In this document: positions 2,279 to 35,558 of the stretch, one piece after another
Layout of the letters: the number at the start of each line of letters is the position of its first letter
Numbering within the stretch: the stretch's first letter is position 1
Source of the DNA: an uncultured Gammaproteobacteria bacterium
GTDB lineage: Bacteria; Patescibacteriota; Patescibacteriia; JAHIZJ01
Assembly: GCA_964371245.1 (NCBI GenBank)
Contig: CAYJKP010000002.1
Span: 46,239 to 100,959, forward strand
DNA length: 54,721 bases
Direction of reading: 5' to 3'
Notes under the pieces: model-generated
What the model was told of the DNA's origin: nothing
Seen by the model: only the letters and a program-made list of their open reading frames with translations
Database searches by the model: none
Program-made: the position numbers and the translations under genes

Positions 2279-2288
2279 GAAATGATTG

Positions 2289-2762
2289 TTAGGCTTTTGG
2301 CTTGGCCAGTTGCTCTTTGACCACCTGGCTGACGACGTTGCCTGGGCCGCGCGGACCGACGCGCTTCATCGTCTCACCCATGACGCGGCCGAAATTGAGC
2401 CCGGCCGGATCCGCGCTCTCGTCGATGACCGACTGAACGATCTGACGAATTTCCTCAGTCGACAGCTCAGCCGGTAAAAACGTCTTCAAAATCTCGAGCT
2501 CCTGCTGTTCGCGCTCAGCCAGTTCATTTCGACCGCCGGCTTTATAGGCCGTGATCGACTCCTCGCGTTTGCGCGTTTCCGTTTTGATGACTTTCATCAC
2601 CGCTTCATCGGTCAGGGGTTCGCGTTTGTTGGCGATTTCATAATTTTTCAAGGCAGACAAAAGCATGCGTAACGTCGATATTTCTACCTCGTTCCGCTGC
2701 TTTTGCGCATCCTTTAGTTTTTTTTCGATGTCTTTCGCGATCGCCACGCGCTGGTCGCTCAA
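2289..2762 (-). CDS. yqeY: GatB/YqeY domain protein
   Basis: LRMLLSALKNYEI...KREESITAYKAGGRNELAEREQQELEILKTFLPAELS...FGRVMG; conserved position after rpsU. Confidence 0.93.
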   Translation of the reverse strand: MSDQRVAIAKDIEKKLKDAQKQRNEVEISTLRMLLSALKNYEIANKREPLTDEAVMKVIKTETRKREESITAYKAGGRNELAEREQQELEILKTFLPAELSTEEIRQIVQSVIDESADPAGLNFGRVMGETMKRVGPRGPGNVVSQVVKEQLAKPKA

Positions 2763-3025
2763 TTCTTTTTAAACCCTCGATACGGGCGCCGGCCATCCTT
2801 ATCCAGCCATTCATCAAGTTTACCAATCTTCTTCAAATATTCGCGATGATCGTGAAGTTCTTTCCGACGGATCGCTTCTTCGCGTACTTGGCGCTTGTTT
2901 TTGTCTCGTTCGTAAAATCGTCGACGTTTTGCCCGAATGAGTAGTCCGCTTTGTTGTACCTTCCGCGTAAACCGTCGAATAAGACTTTCGCCAGATTCAC
3001 CTTCCTTGCGACGGACTTCTACCAC
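2759..3025 (-). CDS. rpsU: 30S ribosomal protein S21 (bS21)
   Basis: VEVRRKEGESGESLIRRFTRKVQQSG...RRFYE; GTG start preceded by GGGGAGGTGA Shine-Dalgarno. Confidence 0.92.
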   Translation of the reverse strand: MVEVRRKEGESGESLIRRFTRKVQQSGLLIRAKRRRFYERDKNKRQVREEAIRRKELHDHREYLKKIGKLDEWLDKDGRRPYRGFKKN

Positions 3026-3092
3026 AAATAGTCACCTCCCCTTTTGGGAATCTTACCTAAAGGTAGTTAGATAATTGAAAAATATCGTTTTT

Positions 3093-3121
3093 AATATACC
3101 ACGGATTTTTAGATTGGTCAA
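3093..3121 (-). promoter_or_regulatory. Sigma70-type promoter for rpsU-yqeY
   Basis: TTGACC-17 nt-TATATT with TGn extension (TGGTATATT). Confidence 0.65.
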
Positions 3122-3126
3122 ATTGA

Positions 3127-3477
3127 TCAAACTGCCTTTATTTTTCGGCCTGAAAGCACGTGGATGTGGACATGTGGGACAATTTGACCGGCTGACTCGC
3201 CGTTATTGATAACAATTTTAAAACCGTCAAGCACCAGCGTTTCAGCTACCTTTTGCACGCCCTGCATGAGCCGAGAAAAAATCTCCGACTCAGCCGGGGT
3301 GATACCCATAATCGTTCCGAAGTGCTTTTTCGGAACACACAGGACATGGGTCTCTGCCTTGGGATAGATATCGCGGAACGCCAATATCCAGTCGTCTTCG
3401 TAAACAATGTCCGCCGGCAGGTTTTTGGCGACGATTTTACAGAAAAGGCAGTCAGGATTTGTCTGGGGTTGGCTCAT
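3127..3477 (-). CDS. Histidine triad (HIT) nucleotide-binding protein
   Basis: DCLFCKIV...AFRDIYPKAETHVLCVPKKH...GQIVPHVHIHVLSG (HxHxH triad). Confidence 0.95.
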   Translation of the reverse strand: MSQPQTNPDCLFCKIVAKNLPADIVYEDDWILAFRDIYPKAETHVLCVPKKHFGTIMGITPAESEIFSRLMQGVQKVAETLVLDGFKIVINNGESAGQIVPHVHIHVLSGRKIKAV

Positions 3478-4882
3478 CAGTGGTGGTATGGGAGATAATG
3501 ATACCGTTGTTGTGCGAGGCTTTCATAAGACGACGTTTCAATTCCGGAACGATTTTTTCGAAATTGATCACTTCTTGCGTACCGCTTTCCATGTCACGCA
3601 TCAGGATTGTGCCGTCGATGATCTCCTTTTGTCCGAGAATCAGGGCAATCTTGATGTTCAAGCGATTGGCAATTTCCAGCTGCGGCTTGATGCCGTCTTT
3701 TGAAAAACTTTCACCGGCGACGACGCCTTCTCGGCGCAGCATCTCAAAGAGTTTCAGGGCTTTCCGCCGCGAGAGATCGCCGAGCTGGGCGACAAACACG
3801 TCCGGCGGTTCCTGGCCTTTGACGAATACCTGCCGCTCTTTTAACAAGTTGATGACGCGTTCCATGCCGACAGCAAAACCAACCGCCGGGGTCGGCCGGC
3901 CACCGAGCAATTCAGCCAGGCCATCATACCGGCCGCCGCCGCCGAGCGCGTTTTGTCCCCCGCTGGCTTCTTCGCTCGGCCAGATTTCAAACGTGGTCCG
4001 CGAATAGTAATCCAAGCCGCGGATGATGCGCGAATTTAAGGTGTATGGTAGTTCCAGCGCGTCCAGATATTCCAATACCTGCGTGAAGTGTTTATGATCC
4101 TCTTCGTCGAGAAAATCGATAATCTGAGGGGCATCGAGCGAGAGTTCGACGCACGTTGGGTTTTTACAATCCAGGACGCGCAGCGGGTTCTTGACCAGGC
4201 GTTTTTTACAATCGTCGCAGAGCTGATTCCGCCGTGGTTTTAAATATTCCGTCAGTTCCCGTTTATACCGATTGCGACTGGCGAGATTGCCGAGACTGTT
4301 GACCTGCAAACTGACGTCGAGGCCGAGCGTCTTGAAAAAGTTATAGGCAACCAACATGATTTGGGCGTCAATGACCGCCTGACCGTCGCCCAGGGCTTCA
4401 AAACCGAACTGATGGAACTCCCGATACCGGCCGGCCTGGGGACGCTCGCGTCGAAACATTGAGCCATAGTAAAAAAGCTTCACTGGCTGGGGCCATGAAA
4501 TCATACCATGCTCAAGATAGGCTCGAACGATCGGCGCCGTGTTTTCAGGACGCAGGACGAGTTGATCGCCGCCCTGATCGGTGAAGGTGTACATTTCTTT
4601 TTCCACGATATCCGTGGCTTCGCCGATTGACCGGACAAACAGGCCCTGCTCCTCGAGAATCGGTGTTTCAATATATTGGTAGCCATAGATCTGGCCGAGC
4701 GCAAAGACGGTTTTCCGAACATGCTCCCAATACACCATTTCGGTCGGCAAAATATCCTTCATCCCACGAATGAGATGGGGCTGTTCATACTTGGCCTTGC
4801 CGTTCGTTTTCTTCGGAATCGGCTCGCCTGTTTCTTTCGCCTCTTTCGGCTCTTTTGATTCTTTCGCGTCTTTCAATGGCAT
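3452..4882 (-). CDS. hisS: Histidine--tRNA ligase (start placed at ATG 4882)
   Basis: RGMKDILP, LVLRPENTAPIVR, FRRERPQAGRYREFHQFGFE, RGLDYYSRTTFE, GGGGRYDGL, GFAVGMERV. Confidence 0.97.
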   Translation of the reverse strand: MPLKDAKESKEPKEAKETGEPIPKKTNGKAKYEQPHLIRGMKDILPTEMVYWEHVRKTVFALGQIYGYQYIETPILEEQGLFVRSIGEATDIVEKEMYTFTDQGGDQLVLRPENTAPIVRAYLEHGMISWPQPVKLFYYGSMFRRERPQAGRYREFHQFGFEALGDGQAVIDAQIMLVAYNFFKTLGLDVSLQVNSLGNLASRNRYKRELTEYLKPRRNQLCDDCKKRLVKNPLRVLDCKNPTCVELSLDAPQIIDFLDEEDHKHFTQVLEYLDALELPYTLNSRIIRGLDYYSRTTFEIWPSEEASGGQNALGGGGRYDGLAELLGGRPTPAVGFAVGMERVINLLKERQVFVKGQEPPDVFVAQLGDLSRRKALKLFEMLRREGVVAGESFSKDGIKPQLEIANRLNIKIALILGQKEIIDGTILMRDMESGTQEVINFEKIVPELKRRLMKASHNNGIIISHTTTDEPTPDKS

Positions 4883-5944: not shown

Positions 5945-8900
5945 TTACGATATTGTAATCGTTAGCGTGCCAGAATAATCACCAATTCGCCGGAGATTTA
6001 GGTTGCCGATGGATAACACCGGTTCGATGTAATATTTGCCCATGCCATAGCTCGGGTTTCCGGGGCAGCCGGTTGTGCACGCGTCCGCATCAACAACCGT
6101 AATGCTCGAATCAGGATCCAATGTGTTACTCGAGGCGGCGCAGACGCCGGCGCTCGGACATGAGCCGAGTTCGGCGCCATAGCGGGCGGTTACCGTGTCA
6201 TTTGGATCGAAGGTAACGTCGCCCGCTCGGATGAGATCATGATTGTACCAGCCGGTGGCGGTATAGGTCGATGCGCCGATTTGCAACCCGTAGACCAAAT
6301 AATATTGATTCCTATTTATCTGTAATGGTGTATGAGGCAGATAGGCGTACGTGCCCGTTCCGATATAAATAGCATTATGCCAAGCCGAACCGTCATATTC
6401 CGTATAATAAAGGTATGTACCTAAGTCTACGTCAGTGACGTTATAAAAAACCCACAAGCTCGTGCCATCGGTCGTAATCGATGGATTCGACGCGGTGGAA
6501 CCCACTACTGAACCATCGTAGATAGTTTCTTCGCCTCCCCACGATCCGTTGTACTTCCGGAGGCGGATCTTACCGATATCAGCGATTCCTACGGTTTCCA
6601 CGTATGTTAAATATATGTTACCGCCGCTGTCGCCGATCGCAGAGTATCCATTGCCGGGATCAGCGGTATCGATCTGCGCAGCGCCGTTCCAGGAACCCGT
6701 ATACGTGTCATAGGTAAGCTTAGTTGCTGAATTGCGATAGAAGAGCATGACTTTATCGTTTGCGTACAATACAAGCGAAGGATCGTCGTTCGTCATCGCC
6801 CAGCTCCAAGAGGAAGCCCAGCTTCCCCCGCTCGGTTTACGATAGACCGCGATGCCGTTGCTCGCAGATGCGCCCTTGACTGCTACCATGAGGTCGCCGT
6901 CAGATTCCGCCACGATCGAACATTCCGTATAGACTATTCCGCCACCAGGGGCCACGACTGTTTCTTCGCCCCCGATCGACCATTGCGTGCCGGATTTTGT
7001 CAGGAGACGGTAATTTATGCCATCCCCTCTTTCGTAGCAGAGATGGATATTCTCGCTCGCGTCCATATAGGTCGCCGGGATACTGCTTGACTCTCCGGCG
7101 CCCAGCGGTGATCCGGTAATGGCTTCGGACCAGGTAGCCGTCTTGTCAGAGCTTTTTTTAAACCTCACCGACGTGCCGTCATTGTAGGCAACGACAATGA
7201 TGCCGTCGACAGTCGCCGCGATATTTCTCGTCTGAACGGTCGGTAAACCGTTTGTGCTTTGCGAATAAAACGAGCCGGTCGTAAGGGAGCGCAGATGCTC
7301 GAGCGTCGCGACCGCCGACCAGCCCACGCCCGTACCGCGATCGTCCCAAACCTCGATTTCCTGGCTATTCGACTGAAGCAGGGATGCAGTGGAATCGCCG
7401 GCCGTGCCCAGCGTATAGTCCGTAAACGCGACGCTGGCTGGGCCGTTGTCGCTCAATGAAAAAGTGGCCGTTGTGGTCAGATTCGGATACGAAAAGCCGC
7501 CGGTGGGATTGATCGCCACCGCCAGTGAATTAACCGTGTCATAGGCGCGAAAATAATAAGTTGTGCTCGCGCTAACATTATTGCCCCAGATTGTAAACTC
7601 AAACTCAGTTATTTTATCGGCCGTGAAATCGAAGGTTGATGACGTGCTTCCCGATTCATTATATGTGCCGCTGGTATCGGTATCGCTTAAGACTCGGCTG
7701 TCGATCGTGCCATCATCAGTCGCATTATCGCCATCGTAATAGCACCAAATAGAAAAAGAACACAGACCGACTTCAACCACATTGGTTGCCGTGGCGAACG
7801 TTGAGCTTGTTGAATATTGCAGCTTGAAACGGATGTTATCCTCTCCAGCACCGCCGAGTTCGGCAATTGATAGGCGCAGTTTAATCGGCTCTTTTTTCCC
7901 GATTTTGTCGGGAGGGACGGCGTTTTCTGCCGCGTATGGTACGACCGGCGTGGCCACATCCTCGTCACCATACATCCGCCAGTTCTGCGAATAGGGCGAA
8001 AATATATTACTCACGTTGAAGCGGAAGTCGATATCGTAATAATCATAGTACGTCCAGTTCGCATCAGACGTGCACGTCGTAGTGCAGTACCCGCCCCGCG
8101 AGGCCGTGGCGTTATAATTAAGATTATAATAGTCGCCGCCAGCCGCAATATACGAATAATTTGCCGCTGTCTGGTAATAACATGACGTTGTGGCGGAAGT
8201 CGTGAGCTGGACGCGATATGTTTGGCCCGTCTTCAGATCCACGGTGCTTGAAAGCGCCACGTCATACCACGTGAGAGTTGTGGTTACGGCCGCGGCAGTA
8301 ACGACTGTTCCGGTGGCGAGCTGCGTATCACTGCTATCACGAATATCATATGTCAGGTCAGCGGTTGGGATGCTGCCGCAGGCGCCTGCTTTTTGGATGT
8401 AGAAACCGACCGTGTCGGTCTTCTTTGACGGGCCGTAGACCGTAATCTTTTCAGCCCGGGAATAGTTGACGTAAATAGCCCAATTGGTGTAGGTAGTGTT
8501 TGAATTTCCTTCATCAGTGGCTCCATCAATAAAATAGATAGGTTGGTATCCTTGATTGGACCAAGAAGTACCATTGTACCATTCTGTGTTCGACGCCACA
8601 TCACTGACGTTCCGGTACGGGGTCATGAGGTTGTTCGGCGTTTCCCGCCGGATGCCGATATAATTGGACCCCCCGATAGTGCCAGAAACATACTGGACGA
8701 CGATGTGGTACACCGTACCGGCCGTGAGCGACGGCTGGGCATTTCGCGCAAACGAAAATACGTTCCACCCTGTTGCAGTCGGGGCATTATCGACATACGA
8801 ACTCGCGACGCTGCCGGAAAGCCAGGTTCCAGAAGGGTCGCCGCTAGAATCAGACTGCAAGCCAAACCGATACGTCGGCGATGACACTACGGCGTGCAGA

Positions 8901-16117: not shown

Positions 16118-16696
16118 TTAGGTAACGGTCAGCGTCAACGTGGCCGAATAGTTGCCGGCTGCATAGGACGGCTGTTGCGTGAAGTTAAGGAGTGTGTTGT
16201 CGATCCGATAGGCACCCAAGCCGTTGCTGGCCGTGGCCACCATCAGATTGCGCGTCGCGTTCAGATATTGATCGTCGGTGCCGGCCGACACACCCGTCGA
16301 GCTAGCTCCGTTTAAATTTGCGATGTCGCCGGGTGACCAGCGCAGGGCGTTGCTTAAGGTAATCTGCCGATTGGCATCATTTACATCGACGTAATTCTCA
16401 ATCGATCCGGTCGTGGCTGACCAGCCAGCGCCGGTACCGCGATAATCGGTCACCAGGACATTATTCATGTTGATCGCCGCGTTCTGTAACAAACCAGCCG
16501 CGATATTGCCGAATGAGATATTCGTGTTCTGAGCCGCGATGTCTAAGGAGCCGGCGGTGATGTTTTGGTAGAGCTCGGAATTCGCCGTGTTGGCCGCCCG
16601 CGATACTTCCAATGAACCAAAAACCATGATCAGCGTAAAAGCAATAATCAACGTACTGAAGATTTTCTGGGTTAGGGCTTGTGTTTTGTTTACCAT
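16118..16696 (-). CDS. Small secreted WxL-type protein, copy A
   Basis: Signal peptide ending VSRA; VTDYRGTGAGWSAT (WxL D-x-R-G-T-x-x-G-W motif); C-terminal GNYSATLTLTVT. Confidence 0.8.
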   Translation of the reverse strand: MVNKTQALTQKIFSTLIIAFTLIMVFGSLEVSRAANTANSELYQNITAGSLDIAAQNTNISFGNIAAGLLQNAAINMNNVLVTDYRGTGAGWSATTGSIENYVDVNDANRQITLSNALRWSPGDIANLNGASSTGVSAGTDDQYLNATRNLMVATASNGLGAYRIDNTLLNFTQQPSYAAGNYSATLTLTVT

Positions 16697-16716
16697 GGAA
16701 GTATGGAAAGTATTTG

Positions 16717-17295
16717 TTAGCTGACGGTCAACGTCAATGTGGCTGTGTAGTTACCGGCTTGGTAGGACGGCTGTTGAGTGAAATTAAGAACGGTGTTGCT
16801 AATACGATAGGCGCCCAAGCCGTTGCTGGCCGTGGCCACCATCAGATTCCGGGTGGTATTGAGGTAGACATCGTCGGTGCCGGCGGTCACGCCAGTTATG
16901 ATTGAACCGTTTACGTTTCCGACATCGCCCGGCGACCACTTGAGAGCATTATTTAAAGTTATCTGTTTATTCGAATCGGTGACATCCACGTAATTCTCGA
17001 TCGATCCGGTCGTGGCTGACCAGCCAGCACCAGTCCCGCGGTAATCAGTCACCAGGACATTGTTCATGTTGATCGCCGAGTTTTGAGAATAACCAGCGGC
17101 GATATTGCCGAATGAGATATTCGTGTTCTGAGCGGCGATGTCTAAGGAGCCGGCGGTGATGTTTTGGTAGAGCTCGGAATTGGCCGTGTTAGCCGCCCGC
17201 GATACTTCCAATGAACCAAAAACCATGATCAGCGTAAAAGCAATAATCAACGTACTGAAGATTTTCTGGGTTAGGGCTTGTGTTTTGTTTACCAT
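16717..17295 (-). CDS. Small secreted WxL-type protein, copy B
   Basis: As copy A; N-terminus identical to A and C-terminus identical to C. Confidence 0.8.
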   Translation of the reverse strand: MVNKTQALTQKIFSTLIIAFTLIMVFGSLEVSRAANTANSELYQNITAGSLDIAAQNTNISFGNIAAGYSQNSAINMNNVLVTDYRGTGAGWSATTGSIENYVDVTDSNKQITLNNALKWSPGDVGNVNGSIITGVTAGTDDVYLNTTRNLMVATASNGLGAYRISNTVLNFTQQPSYQAGNYTATLTLTVS

Positions 17296-17315
17296 GGAAG
17301 TATGGAAAGTATTTG

Positions 17316-17891
17316 TTAGCTGACGGTCAACGTCAATGTGGCTGTGTAGTTACCGGCTTGGTAGGACGGCTGTTGAGTGAAATTAAGAACGGTGTTGCTA
17401 ATACGATAGGCGCCCAAGCCGTTGCTGGCCGTGGCCACCATCAGATTCCGGGTGGTATTGAGGTAGACATCGTCGGTGCCGGCGGTCACGCCAGTTATGA
17501 TTGAACCGTTTAAATTCGTGATGTCACCCGGTGACCAGCGCAGTGCGTTACTCAAGGTAATCTGTTTATTCGAATCGGTGACATCGACGTAATTCTCGAT
17601 CGATCCGGTCGTGGCTGACCAGCCAGCGCCGGTACCGCGGTAATCGGTCACCAGGACATTGTTCATGTTGATCACGGAGTCCTGAGAATAACCGGCAGCC
17701 AAATCGCCAAACGATATATTCGTGTTCTGGGCCGCGATGTCTAATGAGCCGGCGGTGATGTTTTGGTAGAGCTCGGAATTCGCCGTGTTGGCCGCTCGGG
17801 ACACTTCAAACGATCCATAGACCATCAATACGGTGAAAACAAGAATAATTACCGCAAATACTTCTTCTATTAAAAGCTTTTGTCGAGTCAT
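17316..17891 (-). CDS. Small secreted WxL-type protein, copy C
   Basis: As copy A, with a distinct signal peptide; ends GNYTATLTLTVS. Confidence 0.8.
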   Translation of the reverse strand: MTRQKLLIEEVFAVIILVFTVLMVYGSFEVSRAANTANSELYQNITAGSLDIAAQNTNISFGDLAAGYSQDSVINMNNVLVTDYRGTGAGWSATTGSIENYVDVTDSNKQITLSNALRWSPGDITNLNGSIITGVTAGTDDVYLNTTRNLMVATASNGLGAYRISNTVLNFTQQPSYQAGNYTATLTLTVS

Positions 17892-24388: not shown

Positions 24389-25750
24389 ATGCCTGATTTG
24401 AAAACTGCCGTGATTATCGGTCGGACCAATGTCGGCAAGTCCACGCTCTACAACCGACTGGCTGAGGCCGCAAAGGCGATGACCTCAAATATTCCCGGCA
24501 CGACGCGCGATCGAAATGAAACCTTTGTTCAATGGCGTGGCGGCCAATTCCGTTTGGTTGACACGGGCGGTCTTGATATCGATCCGAAGAACGTGATTGA
24601 GCAAGAGATCTTGAAACAGATCCGACTCGCTACTAAAACGGCCGACCTGCTGGTTTTTGTGGTGGACGGGCAAAGCGGCCTCTTGCCCCAAGATCGCGAA
24701 GCCAGCCGATTTATCCAAGCGCTGAAACAGCCAACGCTCGTCGCGGTCAATAAACTCGACAACTTAAATCACCGCGAAAGCGCCGCCTCAGAATTTACCC
24801 GACTCGGGTGGCCAGACATCATTCCCCTCTCGGCAAAAAACGGCAGTGGCACCGGCGATCTCTTGGACGCCATGTACCAGAAGCTTTTTCCGAACAGCGA
24901 GGCGGTCGAGCAAGCGCCAAAACCGGACCTACGGATTGCCGTCATCGGCCGGCCGAACGCCGGAAAGTCATCACTCGTCAACGCGTTGGTCGGCGAAGAA
25001 CGCTCGATTGTCACGCCCATCCCCTACACCACCCGGGAGTCACATGACACCTACATACACTTTCGAAACCAGCTCATTTGTATAATTGATACTGCCGGGC
25101 TCAGAAAACACAGCAAAATCCGGGAAGCCTATCGAAAAACAAAAACCCTGGAAAAACAAAGCGAATCGAAGACGCTGGAGACCCTCCGTCGATGCGATGT
25201 CGCTCTGCTGGTGATTGATATCTCGGAACCACTCACTCACCAGGATAAGCACCTCATCCAATGGATCGTCACGGCTAAAAAGGGTTTAATTATCCTGGCG
25301 AATAAGAGCGACCTCGCGCCCAAAGACCAGACCGCCGATAGCCCGACCATCGAACAGGTTGTGGCTGATGCCATTCCCTTCCTTGATTGGGCGCCGATTG
25401 TGGCTGTTTCGGCAAAAACGCGGGCCGGCGTTCATAAAATATTTCCGCTGGCGATCGACGTGGCGGCGAACCGAAAACGCTGGCTTGATTCGAAAGAGCT
25501 GAAAGAAGCGTTCATCGTCCTGCTCCGCCAGAAGCATCCGCCGCTGGTGACGGCCAAACGGAACATCCACGCGACACTCACCATCACGCAATCCGCGACG
25601 ACACCACCGTCATTTACCGTCGGCGCGAACATCCCAGGTAATCTACCTGATTTCTACCTCAAATACCTCGAGAAAAAATTGCGCGAACGTTTTCATCTTA
25701 CCGGTACCCCGCTGGTTTTCCATTTTAAAAAATTCGTTGGCCGCTCATGA
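24389..25750 (+). CDS. der: Ribosome biogenesis GTPase Der (EngA)
   Basis: Two GTPase domains (GRTNVGKST/DTGG/NKLD and GRPNAGKSS/DTAG/NKSD) plus a KH-like tail. Confidence 0.95.
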   Translation: MPDLKTAVIIGRTNVGKSTLYNRLAEAAKAMTSNIPGTTRDRNETFVQWRGGQFRLVDTGGLDIDPKNVIEQEILKQIRLATKTADLLVFVVDGQSGLLPQDREASRFIQALKQPTLVAVNKLDNLNHRESAASEFTRLGWPDIIPLSAKNGSGTGDLLDAMYQKLFPNSEAVEQAPKPDLRIAVIGRPNAGKSSLVNALVGEERSIVTPIPYTTRESHDTYIHFRNQLICIIDTAGLRKHSKIREAYRKTKTLEKQSESKTLETLRRCDVALLVIDISEPLTHQDKHLIQWIVTAKKGLIILANKSDLAPKDQTADSPTIEQVVADAIPFLDWAPIVAVSAKTRAGVHKIFPLAIDVAANRKRWLDSKELKEAFIVLLRQKHPPLVTAKRNIHATLTITQSATTPPSFTVGANIPGNLPDFYLKYLEKKLRERFHLTGTPLVFHFKKFVGRS

Positions 25751-26331
25751 AATGCGTAATCGGGCTCGGTAATCCGGGCAAAAAATACAGCGCCACCCGC
25801 CATAACATCGGCTTTATGGTACTCGATGCCTTGGCTAAAAAAGCTGACGTACCGTACAAAGCCAACAAAAAACTGCGTTCCGAAATAGCCAAAGGTACCC
25901 TCGCCGGACAGGCGGTAATTTTTGCTAAACCGTTAACCTATATGAATCTGTCGGGTCAGGCCGTGGCCGCGGTTCTTCATTATTACAAACTTGAACCAAA
26001 AGATCTGCTCTTGGTCTACGATGACGTTGATATTGACTTTGGTAGAATACGGCTAAAGCCGTACGGCACATCCGCCGGTCATAACGGTGTCGCTTCGGTC
26101 ATTGAACAGCTCGATACGACGAAATTTTCCCGCTGCCGCGTCGGCATTAAGCTTGGGATCGATGAGAAAGATCTGGCGCGGTATCATAAACGATCGATGG
26201 CCCGGTTTGTTTTAGATACGTTCTCGGCTGAACAGAAAAAATTATTACGTGACATCATCGCTGAGTCGGCTGAAGCTATTGAGCTGGCCCTGGGCAAGGG
26301 GCTGGCCGAGGCGATGAACAAGTTTAATTAA
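25747..26331 (+). CDS. pth: Peptidyl-tRNA hydrolase
   Basis: IGLGNPGKKYSATRHNIGF, KPLTYMNLSG, YDDVD, GHNGVAS. Confidence 0.97.
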   Translation: MKCVIGLGNPGKKYSATRHNIGFMVLDALAKKADVPYKANKKLRSEIAKGTLAGQAVIFAKPLTYMNLSGQAVAAVLHYYKLEPKDLLLVYDDVDIDFGRIRLKPYGTSAGHNGVASVIEQLDTTKFSRCRVGIKLGIDEKDLARYHKRSMARFVLDTFSAEQKKLLRDIIAESAEAIELALGKGLAEAMNKFN

Positions 26332-26420
26332 TTCGTAGTGCATATGAGTATTAGTGGTTCCCACTGTAGGTGGGTTCTTTTATTTCCATGAGTCATTAAT
26401 TTTCAGTTTTCTTTCTGGCC

Positions 26421-26542
26421 AAAAAAAGAGAGTGGCTGAAACCACTCCCGGTGTGCAACGGACAGGTAAACTGGCCGCCCAGAGCAAGCTCTGATCCCCG
26501 CCCAGCCGCCTCCAAGAACCACGCGGCCAGTCTACCTTGTTA
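26421..26542 (-). ncRNA. Candidate stand-alone structured small RNA (about 120 nt)
   Basis: Promoter TTGCCA-16-TATCAT with TGn (26549-26576); stem GGTAGACTGGCCGC/GCGGCCAGTTTACC with a G-U pair on this strand; CUUG-capped hairpin; terminator GGGAGTGG-TTTCAG-CCACTCTC-T7. Confidence 0.55.
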
Positions 26543-26614
26543 GAACGTATGATAGCAAATAGGTTTTTCTTGGCAATGGCTAATAAAAAAACTGCTGAAA
26601 TAGCAGCCATTTTT

Positions 26615-26736
26615 TGACCGTCTCATTACTACCAACAAGCGCAAGATCGGTCCGAAAAATCGGATAATCTATGCCTTGTGGCTACTGTCGCGATAATCGC
26701 AATGTTCGCCGCATGCTGGTAGTAATGAAAAGGCCA
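26615..26736. repeat. Structured direct repeat, copy 1 (122 bp)
   Basis: Matches 27882-28013 except 2 substitutions and a 10-nt deletion; about 27-nt imperfect terminal inverted repeats; minus-strand terminator at 26585-26607. Confidence 0.92.
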
Positions 26737-26796
26737 CCCCAGGTATACTCCTGTCGTGGCCGCGCAGATGTGTGCAGTACGGATGAATGTCGAGCC

Positions 26797-27738
26797 CTAG
26801 GCGAGCTGCCTCAGCAACTGCTGAAACATCGACACGTCGCCGCTGGTGATCGTAACGAACATCGTGCCGCTCGCCCCTGGCCAGCTGCCGGCGGTCACCC
26901 GAATCTCGCTGATCCCTTCAAAGTTCGGAACCGCAATACAGTTGACGGTGATGGCGGCGCCTGCCGGAAGCTTGTAGCGTTCCAGCAACGGCCGGAGGTG
27001 ATCAGCAACCGCCTGGCCGAATTCCGACTCGCGGACCATCGCCTCGCGTATCTGGGTGATCACGACGCCAATCGCTTCTTCGTCCGTGACAGCCCAACAG
27101 CCGCCTTCCCTTGCTTTCGTGTCCAGCAGATGCTTGTATCGGACGAGCTCACTGTCATCCAGTGGCGGCTGGTCGTCCGGCGACCCGACAAACGCCCGCG
27201 CCTGCTTCTCCCCCTCCGGCAGGTAGCACGACGGCTGGGCGCTCAGCCGTTGAGCCAGCGAAACGACTTCCGGCCTGTTCCGCAGATACCGTTCAACGCC
27301 CGCCGGACTGTGGTCTCCCTGAAGGGCGCTGAGCAGTTCCCGGCAGAGCGTGGAAACGAGGTAGCAGCCGAAGGCATGGACGGACGCCTGGCGGTTCTTG
27401 AGCAGGGCATAAAGGCTCTGCAAGAGATAGACCAAGGCGATATCCACGCGTCCAGGCTGGCTGAACTTCTCTGCCAGCGCCGTGGCGCGGTCGCAAAGGA
27501 ACACCGGCAAGGCTCGCGGCTCAAAACCGTCCAGCCGCCTGAAATCCGCATTCGGACAGGCCCGCGCCAGGGTCAGCTCGAGCGCGACCGTGAGATCGCC
27601 CAAGGTCAGTTCGGGGAAGCTGAAGTCGTCACCCAGTGCCTCCTGGATTCCTTCCAGGGGATGGCCGAATTGCCTTTCCGTCAATCGCGCCAAACCCCTG
27701 AGATTGACTGGCTGGGTCGATGGAAGTATCCCGCTCAT
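26797..27738 (-). CDS. Hypothetical protein (313 aa, GC-rich ORFan)
   Basis: Long ORF with AGAGGAGGAGG Shine-Dalgarno and its own promoter TTGACA-16-TATTCT with TGn (27805-27832); no recognisable domain. Confidence 0.8.
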   Translation of the reverse strand: MSGILPSTQPVNLRGLARLTERQFGHPLEGIQEALGDDFSFPELTLGDLTVALELTLARACPNADFRRLDGFEPRALPVFLCDRATALAEKFSQPGRVDIALVYLLQSLYALLKNRQASVHAFGCYLVSTLCRELLSALQGDHSPAGVERYLRNRPEVVSLAQRLSAQPSCYLPEGEKQARAFVGSPDDQPPLDDSELVRYKHLLDTKAREGGCWAVTDEEAIGVVITQIREAMVRESEFGQAVADHLRPLLERYKLPAGAAITVNCIAVPNFEGISEIRVTAGSWPGASGTMFVTITSGDVSMFQQLLRQLA

Positions 27739-27881
27739 ACCGTCCTCCTCCTCTTGTCTGTGAAACGGAACCCCTGATGTGCCATGACCACCGTACGATG
27801 TATCAGAATATCATTATACGATTCATTGTCAAGTGATCACGGTTCTGATAATAAAAAAACGCCGCCTCAGCGACTGACCGG

Positions 27882-28013
27882 TGACCGTCTCGTTACTACC
27901 AACAAGCGCAAGATCGGTCCGAAAAATCGGATAATCTATGCCTTGTGGCTACTGTCGCGAATAGGAGGGGTAATCGCAATGTTCGCCGCTTGCTGGTAGT
28001 AATGAAAAGGCCA
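27882..28013. repeat. Structured direct repeat, copy 2 (132 bp)
   Basis: Carries the extra ataggagggg (27961-27970); minus-strand promoter TTGACA-16-TAAGAT with TGn (28043-28070); terminator at 27851-27875. Confidence 0.92.
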
Positions 28014-28077
28014 TTTCCCGCGAAATATTCAACAGATAGACCATCTTAGCACAGAACGAAGACTTGTCAAGCCGGTC

Positions 28078-28106
28078 TTGATGACATTGTGATAATGTGC
28101 TAAAAT
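28078..28106 (+). promoter_or_regulatory. Sigma70-type promoter for mfd, back-to-back with the minus-strand promoter
   Basis: TTGATG-17-TAAAAT with TGn extension; ATG 10 nt downstream. Confidence 0.6.
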
Positions 28107-28116
28107 TATAGTAGAA

Positions 28117-31100
28117 ATGAATATTCCGCACCCCCTGAGACGCGATGCCCAGGGTATTTGCCATATTTCTGGCGTGCCATCGCTCTCAGCCAAGACATTT
28201 CTCCTGACCAACCGAGATACCCCGTTTCAGATGAACGAGCGGGTTTTGTGGTTGACGCAGACCGCGGCTGAGGCCGAACAAGTCGCTTATTTTTTGAAGA
28301 TTTGGCAGGAAAAAACGAAGCGCGCTCAGCCGGTTTTACTGTTCCATGATCACCAGCTCTCAGCCTGCCTCTGGTGGTTTTTAACAGCCCAACCTGGCTG
28401 GCTTATCATCCCGGTCGAGGCGTTTCTTGGCACGGTCCCGACGCCCGACGACTATGCCAAAAAAATACGACACCTCAGCGTGACGGAACAGCTCTCGCCG
28501 GCCAAACTTTCATACGAGCTGGTTGTCCGAGGCTATGAGTTCAACACCACTGCTGACGCGATCGGCACGTTTGCCCGCCGCGGCAATATCGTGGATATTT
28601 TTCCACCCAATTCAGCGCACCCGTTTCGGTGCGAATTTGGACCAGCTGCCATTGATCAGCTTACCCGTTTTGACAGCGTCACCGGCCGCAATCTAGAAAA
28701 GTTGGCTGAGCTTGAACTCTTACCCGCCCGTCTTGAACTCGCGGACGCACAAGGCTCTCTTTTTGACTATCTCGCGCCCGCGGCCAAGACGCCTTTTCGT
28801 GTCGTCTATTCAGACCCTGACGAATTGGAAAAAGCCAGTCCTGACTGGTCAAAAATTGGGCAGTGGGTTGCCCAATCTCCGCAATACGTTTTTCATGCGC
28901 TTCCAACCGGCCAGGCTGAGAATACGTTCGATTTCAAACCCACCCCGCTTTTCCACGGACGGCTGACGGAATTTCTCGCGGCACTCTCGGATTGGCAGCG
29001 AAATAAGTATTCTATTTATATTCCGGCAACTCTGAAAGACGGGCTTGAGCGTCTCTGGCAAAAGGAAAAACCGGACGCCACGCCGCTTTCGCTGACCGAG
29101 CTTGATCTCGATCCGACGATTCGTCCGGAGTCGGGTTTCGTTTCCCGCGAGCGCCGGAGCGTCCTGCTGACGGAATTTGAGCTGTTTGGCGCGGCGCGCA
29201 GGGAAACAGATTCATCCGCCCGTCCGAAAAAAATCAGCCGGAAAACACGCCGCGAGATTATTAGTTTCATTGCCGAGCTCGAGCCGGGCGATTATGTTGT
29301 CCACCTCGACCATGGCGTCGGCCGGTTCCGCGGCATGACTACGCACGTCGTCGACGGCATCGCGAGAGAATATCTCGAACTGGAATACGCCGAACGAGAC
29401 AAACTCTCCGTGCCCGTTGAATTGGCGTATAAAATCGATAAATACGTCGGCTCGGAGCGCCCGGCTGTCCACCGCTTGTCAAACACCACCTGGCGTCAGG
29501 TCACGCAAAAAATCAAAGAAGAGGCGAAACAAATCGCCGACGAATTGATCAAGCTCTATGCGAATCGACGGCTTGCGGTCGTCGAACCGTGCGAGCCGGC
29601 CACGCCGGCCGAAATCGAGCTGGCAAAATCATTCCCCTATCAGGAAACTGCCGACCAGGCCAAAGCCATCCACGATGTCGTCAGCGATCTTGAAAAAACA
29701 GAGCCGATGGACCGTTTGATCTGCGGCGATGTCGGCTTCGGCAAAACCGAAATCGCGATCCGCGCCGCCCTGAAAATGGCAATGAACAAAAAACAAGTCG
29801 CCATCTTGGCACCGACTACCATCTTGGTCCAGCAGCACTACGATACCTTCCATAGCCGGCTATCTCGCTTTCCGGTGAAAATCGAGGCGCTCAGCCGATT
29901 TAAGACGACGGCGCAGCAAAAAGAAGCGGTGGCAAAATTAAAAACCGGCGAGGTTGACATCATCATCGGCACGCACCGGCTGCTCTCGGCCGATGTCCAT
30001 TTCAAAAATCTCGGTTTGATTATCATCGACGAAGAACAGCGCTTTGGCGTCAAGCACAAGGAAAAACTGAAAGCCCTACGGGTCGACAGCCACGTCCTAA
30101 CCCTCACCGCCACGCCAATCCCGCGCACGTTGAATCTCGGCCTCTCAACCCTCCGTGACATGAGCGTCATCCGAACCGCGCCCGAAGGCCGCCAGCCGAT
30201 CGAAACAATTATCCGTCCGCACGCCGATGAGATTATTAAAGAAGCGGTCGATTTCGAGCTGCAGCGCGGCGGGCAGGTTTATTTCCTTTACAATAAAGTT
30301 GAAACGATCAACCTCAAAGCGAACCAGCTCCAGCGCCTGATTCCGAATGCGACCATCGGCGTGGTTCACGGCCAGCTCCCCGACGCCCAGCTCGCCCAAA
30401 CGATGTCCGATTTCGATAACCAAAAACTGAACATCCTCGTCTCAACGACGATCATCGAAAACGGTCTCGACCTGCCAAATGTGAATACCTTGATCGTCGA
30501 GGACGCGACCCGGTTTGGCCTGGCTCAGCTCTACCAGTTGCGCGGCCGGATCGGCCGCGGCCACCGCCAGGCGTTCGCCTATTTTCTCTATCCCCAGAAA
30601 AAGCTGACCGGCGTCGCGAAAAAACGGCTTCAGGCGATTCTCGACGCCAAGGAGCTCGGCTCCGGTTTCCAGTTGGCGCTGCGCGATTTGGAAATCCGCG
30701 GCGTCGGCAATCTCCTCGGCCGGGAGCAGCATGGCCGGGTCAATGCGATCGGGCTGAGCTTGTATTCGCGCCTCCTGAGTCAGGCGGTTGAAGAGCTCCG
30801 TTCCGGCAAGCCAGCCAAAGAGTTGCGCGATATTTCTATTGACCTGCCATTGCCGATCACCATCCCGCCTGATTATATTGAACAAGAAAACCGCCGGCTT
30901 CAGGTCTATCGCGACCTGTCCGACAGCGTCGACGCGGATGAGCTCGACGAGCGGTTTGTTAAACTGACGCAATCATACGGCCCGCCGCCGCCGAATGTCG
31001 AAAACCTTCGCCGTTTATTGGCGCTCAAACTCGCCTGCCAAGACACCGACGTCGCCACGATTGATACGATTGATTTAGCGCTGGAGCAAGGTGTGACAAA

Positions 31101-31281
31101 ACGCCGGCTGATCATTGAATTTAAAAATCTCTATACCCCCGACCAGATCAAGAATTTACTGGCCAAAAATCCCGATTGGGTGCTCGGTGAAAACCAGATC
31201 CGGATTGATTTTGACAAACTCGGCCAGGACTGGCTCGCCGAAATCGAACGAGTTATTCGGTGTTTCGTTAATAATGTTTGA
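28117..31281 (+). CDS. mfd: Transcription-repair coupling factor
   Basis: GTFARRGNIVDIFP, GDYVVHLDHGVGRF (CarD-like RID), CGDVGFGKTE, IIDEEQRFG, GLAQLYQLRGRIGR, DLEIRGVGNLLG. Confidence 0.97.
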   Translation: MNIPHPLRRDAQGICHISGVPSLSAKTFLLTNRDTPFQMNERVLWLTQTAAEAEQVAYFLKIWQEKTKRAQPVLLFHDHQLSACLWWFLTAQPGWLIIPVEAFLGTVPTPDDYAKKIRHLSVTEQLSPAKLSYELVVRGYEFNTTADAIGTFARRGNIVDIFPPNSAHPFRCEFGPAAIDQLTRFDSVTGRNLEKLAELELLPARLELADAQGSLFDYLAPAAKTPFRVVYSDPDELEKASPDWSKIGQWVAQSPQYVFHALPTGQAENTFDFKPTPLFHGRLTEFLAALSDWQRNKYSIYIPATLKDGLERLWQKEKPDATPLSLTELDLDPTIRPESGFVSRERRSVLLTEFELFGAARRETDSSARPKKISRKTRREIISFIAELEPGDYVVHLDHGVGRFRGMTTHVVDGIAREYLELEYAERDKLSVPVELAYKIDKYVGSERPAVHRLSNTTWRQVTQKIKEEAKQIADELIKLYANRRLAVVEPCEPATPAEIELAKSFPYQETADQAKAIHDVVSDLEKTEPMDRLICGDVGFGKTEIAIRAALKMAMNKKQVAILAPTTILVQQHYDTFHSRLSRFPVKIEALSRFKTTAQQKEAVAKLKTGEVDIIIGTHRLLSADVHFKNLGLIIIDEEQRFGVKHKEKLKALRVDSHVLTLTATPIPRTLNLGLSTLRDMSVIRTAPEGRQPIETIIRPHADEIIKEAVDFELQRGGQVYFLYNKVETINLKANQLQRLIPNATIGVVHGQLPDAQLAQTMSDFDNQKLNILVSTTIIENGLDLPNVNTLIVEDATRFGLAQLYQLRGRIGRGHRQAFAYFLYPQKKLTGVAKKRLQAILDAKELGSGFQLALRDLEIRGVGNLLGREQHGRVNAIGLSLYSRLLSQAVEELRSGKPAKELRDISIDLPLPITIPPDYIEQENRRLQVYRDLSDSVDADELDERFVKLTQSYGPPPPNVENLRRLLALKLACQDTDVATIDTIDLALEQGVTKRRLIIEFKNLYTPDQIKNLLAKNPDWVLGENQIRIDFDKLGQDWLAEIERVIRCFVNNV

Positions 31282-31293
31282 TTCAATATAAAT

Positions 31294-31365
31294 GTATCTC
31301 TCGACTTCGCTCGAGAAATATTTCTCGACCAACCCAGCACCTTGATGCGGGGCGTGGAGAGATAC
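31294..31365. repeat. Palindromic REP/MITE-like element, copy 1 (72 bp)
   Basis: GTATCTCTCGACTTCGCTCGAGAAATATTTCTCGACC...GGAGAGATAC; terminal inverted repeat GTATCTCTC/GAGAGATAC. Confidence 0.85.
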
Positions 31366-31437
31366 CTTTTTTAAAGAAAAAACGCCCCACGCCTTCGCGC
31401 AGGGCAAGCAGAGTTTGTGCGCGCAGCCCCCTTCGGG

Positions 31438-31998
31438 CTACGGTTTCTTGATACAGGCGAAGCAGGCGTTCTCGACCCAGATGTTGTCCTCCAGACAGGT
31501 GTTGACGGAACGTTCCGTTGAGCTGCCCCGGAGAAAGACGATCTGGTTCGGCGCGTCCTGCCGCTCGACCTCCTTGTTCGATTCTCGATCCTTGTAGAGC
31601 GATCTCTGCACCCAGACGGTGCCGAGGCAAGCGATGTGGTAGTGGCGCTGAACCTCCGGATAAGCGGCGCCGAAAGCCAGCAGCTGGGGCAGCGTGACGG
31701 GAAGGAGCCCATCCTTGTCCAGCCGCTTTTTCAGTTCAGCGGTCTTCATCGGCCGGCTGTACTGCTTCAGGACGATCTCGAACGTCCCCGCGGTCAGCGT
31801 CGGCTTGAAGTTCTCGCTGGAAACGTCGGGATTCACCTGATCGTAGGCGCCGGCCGCGATCAACTTCTCGACTGTAGCCGATTCGGCCAGCGTCACCGGA
31901 TAGGTCCGCTGGAAGTAGATCGGCTGAGCCTGCGCGGCGATCGCGCTTACGAAGAACAGGGCCAGCAGCAGAGACGGCCAACACCAGAATCGTCTCAT
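31438..31998 (-). CDS. Secreted hypothetical protein with a CPR-type domain of unknown function; start placed at ATG 31998
   Basis: AGGAGGAGG SD; signal peptide ending AIAAQA; AGAYDQVN, LPVTLPQLLAFGAAYPEVQR; promoter TTGACT-16-TACACT (32063-32090); terminator at about 31374-31410. Confidence 0.78.
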   Translation of the reverse strand: MRRFWCWPSLLLALFFVSAIAAQAQPIYFQRTYPVTLAESATVEKLIAAGAYDQVNPDVSSENFKPTLTAGTFEIVLKQYSRPMKTAELKKRLDKDGLLPVTLPQLLAFGAAYPEVQRHYHIACLGTVWVQRSLYKDRESNKEVERQDAPNQIVFLRGSSTERSVNTCLEDNIWVENACFACIKKP

Positions 31999-32384
31999 CA
32001 GAACCTCCTCCTTGGACACGGCGTGATTGGCACCTGCCAAATTACCCCGCAGCCATAGGCCGAGTGTACTGAAACTACACAAAAAGTCAAGGTCTACCCT
32101 CTTGTTGTCTTTCTTTTGTTGAGATAATGAGCGTTTTTATTTCTTCGTTGCTCATAAGAAATCTTTCGAGTCCGTTTTCAGCTCTCCTTCAGACAAATAA
32201 TTTATTATGTGTTTAGTAGAGAAAAATGTCGATCATATCTGTGCGTAAAAATATGACGACATCATGCAACATGACAAATTTGCCTGAGATGCCATCAAAA
32301 TAACAATTGACCCGGTGCTGAGGTCGCACCCCCGCCTCCAACCGGGAAGAATACTAACAATTAAGACTGGCAAGGAGACTGAAT

Positions 32385-32435
32385 ATGGTCAATAAAGCGA
32401 GCCTAAGCACCTTCATTCTTCTTCTGTCAGGTTAG
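32385..32435 (+). CDS. Possible 16-aa peptide MVNKASLSTFILLLSG
   Basis: AAGGAG 8 nt upstream of the ATG; followed by a strong terminator. Confidence 0.35.
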   Translation: MVNKASLSTFILLLSG

Positions 32436-32474
32436 AGTTCTCAAGGCATTCCAGCCTAACAATTAATGCGAACG

Positions 32475-32512
32475 AAAAGGACCCCGTTTCCACTTCACGG
32501 GGTCCTTTTTTT
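32475..32512. terminator. Bidirectional intrinsic terminator
   Basis: AAAAGGACCCCGT-TTCCACTTC-ACGGGGTCCTTTTTTT. Confidence 0.85.
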
Positions 32513-32535
32513 ATCGATTGCGGCAAATATCTCGC

Positions 32536-32652
32536 TTAGACCTTTTTCTTGGCCGCCTTTGAAAGGAGATAAATAAAGCCGCCGAGCAGTAACAGAAACG
32601 CCCCAGTGCCGATTGGCGAGCCCCAGCCGAGAACGGAATAGATGTCGCTCAT
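32536..32652 (-). CDS. 38-aa single-pass membrane protein (below the ORF-track cutoff)
   Basis: MSDIYSVLGWGSPIGTGAFLLLLGGFIYLLSKAAKKKV: GWGSPIG motif, hydrophobic core and basic tail; co-oriented with its neighbours. Confidence 0.7.
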   Translation of the reverse strand: MSDIYSVLGWGSPIGTGAFLLLLGGFIYLLSKAAKKKV

Positions 32653-35365: not shown

Positions 35366-35470
35366 ATACCCGTGTTTAAATAGATAATGATTTATTTACT
35401 ATCTAAGTATACCACCCTTACCTGGATAAAAAAACACTTGATAAACATATATATATTTCTCTACGTTAAG

Positions 35471-35558
35471 GTATCTCTCGACTTCGCTCGAGAAATATTT
35501 CTTAAGATAATATTTCTCGACCAACCCCGCACCTGGATGCGGGGGCATGGAGAGATAC
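35471..35558. repeat. Palindromic REP/MITE-like element, copy 2 (88 bp)
   Basis: Same element as 31294-31365, with an internal insertion taagataatatttct. Confidence 0.85.

Follow-up and report, generated by a model that had tools for sequence, protein, structure and literature searches.

Small RNAs that act in trans through exposed C-rich loops are known from several monoderm bacteria, among them RsaE/RoxS, LhrC1-5 and the hairpins of RNAIII with their UCCC loops. To our knowledge, almost nothing is known about RNA-based regulation in Patescibacteria (the candidate phyla radiation, or CPR, bacteria). Here we analyse a 54,721-nt stretch of DNA from a member of this group (contig CAYJKP010000002.1; "the window" below, whose positions serve as coordinates throughout), in which two near-identical structured repeats bracket an ORFan (an orphan open reading frame, or ORF) of 313 aa in the interval between pth and mfd. 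The repeated element is probably an uncatalogued, clade-conserved structured small RNA gene of Patescibacteria that resides next to mfd. For our best explanation as a whole, which joins this identity to the function and the insertion proposed below, we put the probability at about 0.72.

The two direct repeats occupy 26615–26736 (copy 1, 122 nt) and 27882–28013 (copy 2, 132 nt), both read on the minus strand, and give the locus the order pth, repeat, ORF, repeat, mfd. They are two substitutions and one 10-nt indel apart. For a 24-mer of the repeat, 0.00 occurrences are expected in the shuffled window, and a covariance model built from nine sequences finds copy 1 and copy 2 in the 54-kb window and nothing further. 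Related loci (L numbers denote the loci of other genomes or contigs compared with the window) were found by an exact-word scan of reference genomes, which led to L001, by a degenerate stem-sequence scan of metagenomes, which led to L004, and in the DNA around Mfd homologs 45%–59% identical to the Mfd of the window. L001, a sister metagenome-assembled genome (MAG) of Patescibacteria (JBAZLK010000008.1), has the same order pth, repeat, ORF, repeat, mfd, and L004 has a single diverged copy directly upstream of mfd. Exactly one copy is present in 11 of 11 other genomes (L004, L007, L009, L010, L011, L012, L013, L014, L015, L016 and L019), always upstream of and divergent from mfd. The distance from the element, on the opposite strand, to the mfd start is 104–238 nt (104 nt to the mfd ATG for copy 2), and the site is syntenic in 13 genomes. 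Covariance scores are 71–151 bits on the minus strand versus 20–42 bits on the plus strand; copy 2 scores 149 bits (38 on the plus strand), copy 1 126 bits, and the element of L016 92–125 bits.

What lies between pth and mfd varies among these relatives and includes tRNAs, other orphan ORFs and a second hairpin RNA. Unrelated small ORFs directly follow the terminator of the RNA in L014 and L016, and in L012, L013 and L015 nothing follows it. As the RNA occurs either with no following gene or with unrelated ORFs, it would be a gene in its own right, behind which lies a slot that takes up lineage-specific genes. Only the lineage of the window and L001 have a second copy and the ORFan, and the orthologs are without the insert.

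Folded as minus-strand RNA, either copy gives a closing stem of ~27 bp plus two hairpins, with five G-U pairs, at −57.8 (copy 1) and −57.5 kcal/mol (copy 2) and z-scores of about −8 (−8.0 for copy 2). The plus-strand folds reach only −45.6 and −51.2 kcal/mol. In single-sequence folds every ortholog takes the same Y shape, made up of a closing stem P1, a hairpin P2, a linker and a hairpin P3. P1 has 22–30 bp in the orthologs, 4–10 of them G-U pairs; the P2 loop carries ACCCCUCCU, and the conserved linker AGUAGCCACAAG sits between P2 and P3. In the window this three-way-junction domain is complete in copy 2, where fold, covariance score and covariation all bear it out, while copy 1 has a U-U mismatch in P1 and is without the 10-nt core of the loop.

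Base pairing in the family is well supported by compensatory change. RNAalifold finds compensatory changes in 22 of 35 pairs, and in a refined 45-pair structure for 15 sequences compensatory double changes are seen in 29 of the 45. Paired cells make up 91.8% of this alignment, compared with 72.7% after column shuffles and 31%–46% when the partners are slid, and none of 500 shuffles reaches any of the observed pairing measures. The 15-sequence alignment was fitted to the covariance model, which favours structure; single-sequence folds and a MAFFT-based alignment agree with the 45-pair structure. The terminal arms covary as an RNA helix, G-U pairs included. Rfam 15 has no match to either copy at E ≤ 10 and none to six orthologous loci at E ≤ 1, and a scan of the whole window returns only one tRNA. 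SRP (signal recognition particle) RNA and 6S RNA, a rod with a central bubble, were also considered as identities and rejected, the consensus being Y-shaped with a 13-nt loop and without an Rfam match.

A consensus scan of the window for promoters and terminators finds three minus-strand promoter-to-terminator units at this locus. The first runs from a promoter (28070→28043) through copy 2 to a terminator hairpin (27874–27861). Its promoter (28043–28070, minus strand) is TTGACA-16-TAAGAT with a TG before the −10 box (scan score 10/12), and the position of that box would place the RNA start near 28036. The putative 5' leader (28014–28036, minus strand) contains a short CNATC motif conserved among close relatives, and terminator A (27854–27874, minus strand) is a 5-bp GC hairpin followed by U7. 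The layout CTTGACA-N14-TGCTANNAT precedes every mfd-adjacent copy in all 12 other genomes. The second unit runs from a promoter (27832→27805) through the 313-aa ORF (27738→26797) and copy 1 to a terminator (26608–26590). Its promoter-like site (27805–27832, minus strand) is TTGACA-16-TATTCT, the ORF is led by a strong Shine-Dalgarno (SD) sequence, AGGAGGAGG (27744–27752, minus strand), 5 nt before the ATG, and terminator B, 3' of copy 1 (26583–26608, minus strand), is terminator-like on the plus strand too. Copy 1 has no promoter of its own in the window or in L001. The third unit (26576→26428) lies outside the repeats and is taken up with the other features of the region.

Comparison with the relatives shows copy 2 to be the ortholog, that is, the resident gene, with a predicted RNA of about 160–190 nt. 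Its sigma-70 promoter is of the extended −10 type, a stem of 22–30 bp closes its three-way junction, and a terminator follows. A first-pass annotation of this DNA, made from the letters alone, had anticipated much of this anatomy. It had described two near-identical direct repeats of 122 and 132 nt, a minus-strand fold with a ~27-bp closing stem, two hairpins and G-U pairs, a different terminator behind each copy, a TTGACA promoter for copy 2, and a neighbouring gene with a strong SD; the positions, folding energies and scan results given here bear these out. It had also named a match to a known Rfam family as counting against its reading, and no such match emerged.

The P2 loop is the most conserved feature of the family. 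Its ACCCCUCCU does not vary across the alignment, and 14 of 15 single-sequence folds place it in the P2 loop; in copy 2 the loop reads UUACCCCUCCUAU, corresponding to the plus-strand letters AGGAGGGG at 27963–27970. The usual 3' tail of 16S rRNA is CACCUCCUUA, and in several orthologs the loop is ACCCCUCCUUA, one base off that tail. The family comparison shows the loop to be a near copy of the anti-SD tail of 16S rRNA. Among the genes of the window itself, 35 of 41 long ORFs have no recognisable SD before the first start (many have a −10-like box just upstream), and a strong SD is found before only about five of the 41, the ORFan among these. This pattern suggests widespread leaderless or SD-less initiation. 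The −10-like boxes, such as TATACT and TATAAT, stand a few bases upstream of the ATG in many of the window's genes.

By analogy to the C-rich-loop small RNAs of other monoderm bacteria, the function of the RNA is most likely to act in trans by pairing with SD sequences. The loop would pair with SD or other G-rich sites and block the access of ribosomes. Since most genes of the lineage are SD-less, it would act on those few mRNAs that begin with a strong SD, and it is the translation of this minority that would be limited. Within the window, the loop is predicted to pair best with an 11-codon mini-ORF, at its SD and start (40403–40431, minus strand; −20.1 kcal/mol). This mini-ORF, ATGATGGGGATGTATAATTCAGAATTCAAAAGGTAA, lies upstream of an ORF at 40009–40356, and its SD, AGGAGGGGUA, matches the loop by perfect complementarity over 10 nt.

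The repeat begins and ends exactly at the outermost pair of P1; the promoter, the leader and the terminators are not duplicated. Directly downstream of copy 2 lies a 1.27-kb GC-rich segment that holds the orphan gene with its own promoter and strong SD, and closes with a second domain copy that lacks a promoter and spans exactly the stem-closed part. As the insertion ends in a copy of the domain, the orphan mRNA would carry that domain in its 3' untranslated region, which is where copy 1 lies. The 1.27-kb unit, taken as circular, forms a complete cassette of promoter, SD, ORF, domain and terminator A. The incoming DNA may already have carried a near-identical domain and recombined Campbell-style with the resident one; one crossover within the domain, between a circular unit and the resident gene, would yield exactly the observed order. 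Alternatively, a local duplication might have accompanied the insertion. Judged from these comparisons, the extra copy and the orphan gene are a lineage-specific insertion, neither an RNA-protein system nor a transposon.

In the 10-nt indel the first-pass annotation saw an anti-SD loop present in copy 2 only, next to a gene with a strong SD. The loop itself is real, but the difference between the copies is not one of design: the 10-nt AATAGGAGGG insert is present in both copies of L001, and copy 1 has it also in contigs from the landfill and groundwater runs X6 and X8. As these copies 1 keep the 10-nt loop, the indel is therefore a deletion private to the strain of the window. Copy 1, redundant and without a promoter, thereby lost its functional loop, as the comparison shows. 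A 68-nt unitig common to both copies has 2.4–2.7 times the depth of its flanks in four sediment runs that hold the window, and the genome therefore has about two copies and no dispersed repeat.

We also considered an independent insertion in the two MAGs, as the insert is 96% identical between the window and L001 versus 24%–47% synonymous difference in pth and mfd. This was not adopted, as identity across the region is a mosaic in which other blocks reach 95%–99%. Over 24600–32650 of the window, blocks of 95%–99% identity to L001 alternate with blocks of 71%–85%, a mosaic that suggests frequent homologous recombination between the two populations.

Several points weigh against the explanation offered here. 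Transcription of the RNA and the positions of its ends are predicted only. One extra AGGAGGGG (an 8-mer match) in 54 kb is within chance, and the best predicted partner of the loop is the SD of a single mini-ORF. The copy number in the genome rests on unitig depth, and the nearest insert-free genomes are distant, with Mfd 58%–59% identical. An empty-site comparison at pth-mfd, which the first-pass annotation had put forward, gave no empty-site joint and no excised form in the public runs examined; an apparent "skip" in X6 and X7 is an L011-type organism with its single copy. The genes within about 10 kb (der, pth, mfd, LytR and the like) include no recombinase. As neither a recombinase nor an excised form nor an empty site was seen, the mechanism of insertion is read from anatomy only. 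A last point concerns the junction nucleotides (AGUAGCCACAAG and CUUGCGCUUG) and the inner part of P1, which are conserved in sequence beyond what pairing demands and would equally suit a protein-binding RNA.

It is this conservation that makes a protein-binding or ribosome-associated role a serious alternative, if one to which we give only a minor share of the probability. Such an RNA would mimic the 3' tail of 16S rRNA and titrate a factor that recognises that tail. The match of the loop to the anti-SD tail extends beyond CCUCC in several orthologs (ACCCCUCCUUA), and a long closing stem is unusual among seed-pairing small RNAs. However, no gene for a partner protein is linked to the RNA, mfd being its only constant neighbour, and C-rich loops that target the SD are the usual solution in monoderm bacteria.

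For the insertion, another reading would have the stem-closed domain double as an attachment or recombination site, with the 1.27-kb unit of promoter, ORF, domain and terminator as a small mobile cassette captured at the small RNA gene by site-specific or structure-specific recombination. This would explain the unrelated orphan genes in the slot, since unrelated ORFans follow the RNA in L014, L016, L009 and L011. The exact agreement of the direct-repeat ends with the base of P1, the unduplicated promoter, leader and terminators, the foreign composition of the cargo, and the complete expression cassette obtained on circular reading all suit it. Against it stand the lack of an integrase within about 10 kb, of any further copy of the domain, whole or partial, in the 11 other genomes (the DNA behind their slot genes included), and of a carrier among phages, plasmids and viral contigs (a blastn search found nothing of the element in phages). 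The public runs hold no excision joint, and the attC core motifs are missing. We consider this reading unlikely. A bolder proposal joins the two ideas: the anti-SD RNA would be a lineage-wide decoy that silences SD-led, largely newly acquired mRNAs, and its stem-closed domain would be a landing pad for orphan-gene cassettes. If so, the window would record a fresh capture, with both junction copies still intact; as a joint claim, this is speculative and improbable.

Resident RNA and inserted cargo, as we read them, do not belong together as a system, and it was their pairing that the first-pass annotation had raised as one of its two alternatives, an RNA-protein module. In such a module (like a type I or III toxin-antitoxin pair, or a dedicated regulator) the anti-SD RNA would control the 313-aa protein. 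The ORFan (26797–27738, minus strand) does adjoin the RNA and has one of the few strong SDs of the window, and a duplex of −14.7 kcal/mol is predicted between its ribosome-binding site and the loop, but this pairing is no better than with any other SD. The RNA is present in 11 related genomes and the protein in none of them, a lack of linkage that the first-pass annotation had itself named as refuting. Nor does the protein have a homolog among 5.8 billion proteins. Against a further 1.8 billion representatives, only a weak likeness of 60–80 residues to repeats of giant cadherin-repeat proteins was seen, which we judged uninformative and probably meaningless. Pfam, PADLOC, PHROG and NCBIfam assign it to no family, a tblastn search of plasmids and phages gave no hit, and an AlphaFold2 model with a mean confidence score (pLDDT) of 38 gives no confident fold.

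Composition marks the ORFan as a coding gene of foreign character. The region of the ORF has 62%–65% GC versus about 50% in the flanks, GC at the three codon positions of the minus-strand frame is 0.66, 0.46 and 0.76, and the frame is open in L001, where a longer antisense ORF is broken. Between the window and L001, 39 substitutions fall 14/11/14 over the codon positions. The ratio of nonsynonymous to synonymous rates (dN/dS) is 0.71, indistinguishable from neutral (binomial p 0.27–0.46), compared with 0.05–0.08 for pth and mfd. With no sign of purifying selection, the ORFan looks like unconstrained cargo of a lineage-specific insertion and is in itself of little interest. Taken with the neutral evolution of the protein, its distribution makes an RNA-protein module very unlikely.

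The other alternative of the first-pass annotation, a composite bounded by miniature inverted-repeat transposable elements (MITEs), or a transposon-derived inverted-repeat pair with a cargo gene, fares worse still and is highly improbable. The terminal arms of each copy do form imperfect terminal inverted repeats (27 nt, 81% complementary), and the ends read TG...CA (TGGCCTT...GACGGTCA on the minus strand, TGACCGT...AAGGCCA on the plus strand), as that annotation had described. It was equally correct that no target-site duplication is visible: the flanks CATTTTT/CCCCAGG and GACCGG/TTTCCCG have no bases in common. In L004 and in L012–L016 the ends differ from TG...CA, the copy number is about two, the element sits at the same syntenic site in 13 genomes behind its own conserved promoter, and its arms covary as RNA. 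The least credible proposal makes the plus strand functional, as a leader with an SD and a 6-codon peptide (MFAACW) that regulates mfd: the mini-ORF noted in the first pass (ATG-TTC-GCC-GCN-TGC-TGG-TAG) is present in the lineage of the window with a synonymous GCA/GCT difference, and the element always precedes mfd, but the ATG-led mini-ORF is absent from L004, L007, L009, L010, L011 and L012–L016, the predicted mfd promoter lies downstream of the element, the plus strand scores 20–42 bits versus 71–151 on the minus strand, and it folds worse in 15 of 15 copies.

Other features of the region deserve mention. The third unit (26421–26576, minus strand), directly after copy 1, has a promoter at 26576→26549 (TTGCCA-16-TATCAT) and a terminator at 26449→26428, and is predicted to give a hairpin-rich RNA of ~120 nt; it is about 96% conserved in L001. 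In L004 and L009, too, the small RNA is followed by a second minus-strand RNA unit, on the side of mfd. In the pth-mfd interval of the same two loci (L004 ~3392–3590, L009 ~3010–3200), tRNA-like 5' and 3' halves lie more than 100 nt apart and may be an intron-bearing tRNA, which ARAGORN and Rfam do not call. Starting right after mfd, direct repeats of ~60 nt (31291–31352 and 35468–35544; 94%–97% alike, 4.18 kb apart) bracket five small or medium genes, two with strong SDs, in a bracket of the same general kind. Elsewhere in the window, three tandem 599-bp units at 16118–17615 are 77%–81% alike, each with a paralogous ORF of ~192 aa, and the window starts with an exact 55-nt direct repeat (1–55 and 190–244, 189 nt apart).

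The searches also returned candidates that were set aside. One metagenome hit (L002) has nothing in common with the element beyond the search pattern itself, and pattern scans of viral contigs gave 0 and 2 hits, the two being chance matches in coding regions with no covariance-model score. Another metagenome hit, L005 (Ga0233414_10002949), scores 24–31 bits on both strands and was judged unrelated or at most to share a short motif. It is a contig of small genes of unknown function, many preceded by a 15-nt stretch identical to the 3' strand of P1; at 290–3300 and 6320–6340, at least eight genes on both strands have ...GTTGATGAATTGATGTGCTTGYTGGTAGTAAGTGRCCGAACGAACAA...SD-ATG upstream at a fixed distance. 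This repeated stretch may be a promoter or 5' element of a phage or plasmid.

The locus thus adds a well-supported structured RNA family, with a fixed address beside mfd, to those that Rfam 15 holds. An invariant anti-SD copy in an exposed loop, in hosts whose genes mostly do without SDs, makes selective control of SD-led mRNAs a testable hypothesis. The window also shows an insertion event in which the RNA domain is itself the duplicated junction, which may be the way that genes come to occupy the variable slot next to the RNA.

Among known elements, bacterial SRP (4.5S) RNA is similar in size and also has a long closing helix. Helix 8 of SRP RNA carries AGCAGCC, which the AGUAGCC stretch of the small RNA recalls. 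The small RNA nevertheless has two hairpins, no GNRA tetraloop and no conserved 5' AGG of the symmetric loop, and no SRP match in Rfam even at E ≤ 10. MITEs and palindromes of the REPIN type share with the element terminal inverted repeats, small size and a lack of coding capacity, but not its copy number of about two, its fixed syntenic site, its lack of a target-site duplication or its RNA-type covariation.

Integron cassettes share some features with the locus. As in the 120-nt VCR-type attC sites and in clusters of attC sites lacking an integrase (CALINs), the ORF has an imperfect palindrome of ~125 nt behind it and the same element ahead of it, and the two copies resemble each other closely, a trait also of sedentary chromosomal integrons. 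The ends, however, are without the R''/R' core motifs RYYYAAC and GTTRRRY. In 11 relatives the element is a conserved gene, present once and driven by a promoter, and here the cassette comes with a promoter of its own. A single ORF lies between the repeats, in place of a cassette array, and no IntI gene lies within about 10 kb. An attC reading was rejected on the absence of core motifs and integrase. The insertion can also be likened to the islands that enter tRNA, tmRNA and small RNA genes between attL and attR: DNA of foreign composition lies between direct repeats that copy a structural RNA gene, and one copy is predicted to stay functional beside its own promoter. It differs from them in that the repeat is the whole 132-nt domain and not a 3' segment, and in that the cargo is one gene of 1.1 kb, a single ORF without a Pfam, PHROG or NCBIfam match, and includes no integrase or remnant of one.

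For the RNA itself, the C-rich-loop small RNAs are a close comparison. There is no relationship in sequence or in Rfam, the loop has a single, near full-length anti-SD copy (ACCCCUCCU) and not several UCCC motifs, and both a closing stem of 22–30 bp with a sequence-conserved three-way junction and a host lineage mostly without SDs are atypical of that group. Like those RNAs, however, it is predicted to be a gene in its own right, read from a sigma-70 promoter and ended by an intrinsic terminator, has no obvious partner of the Hfq type, and presents an unpaired C-rich loop complementary to the SD.

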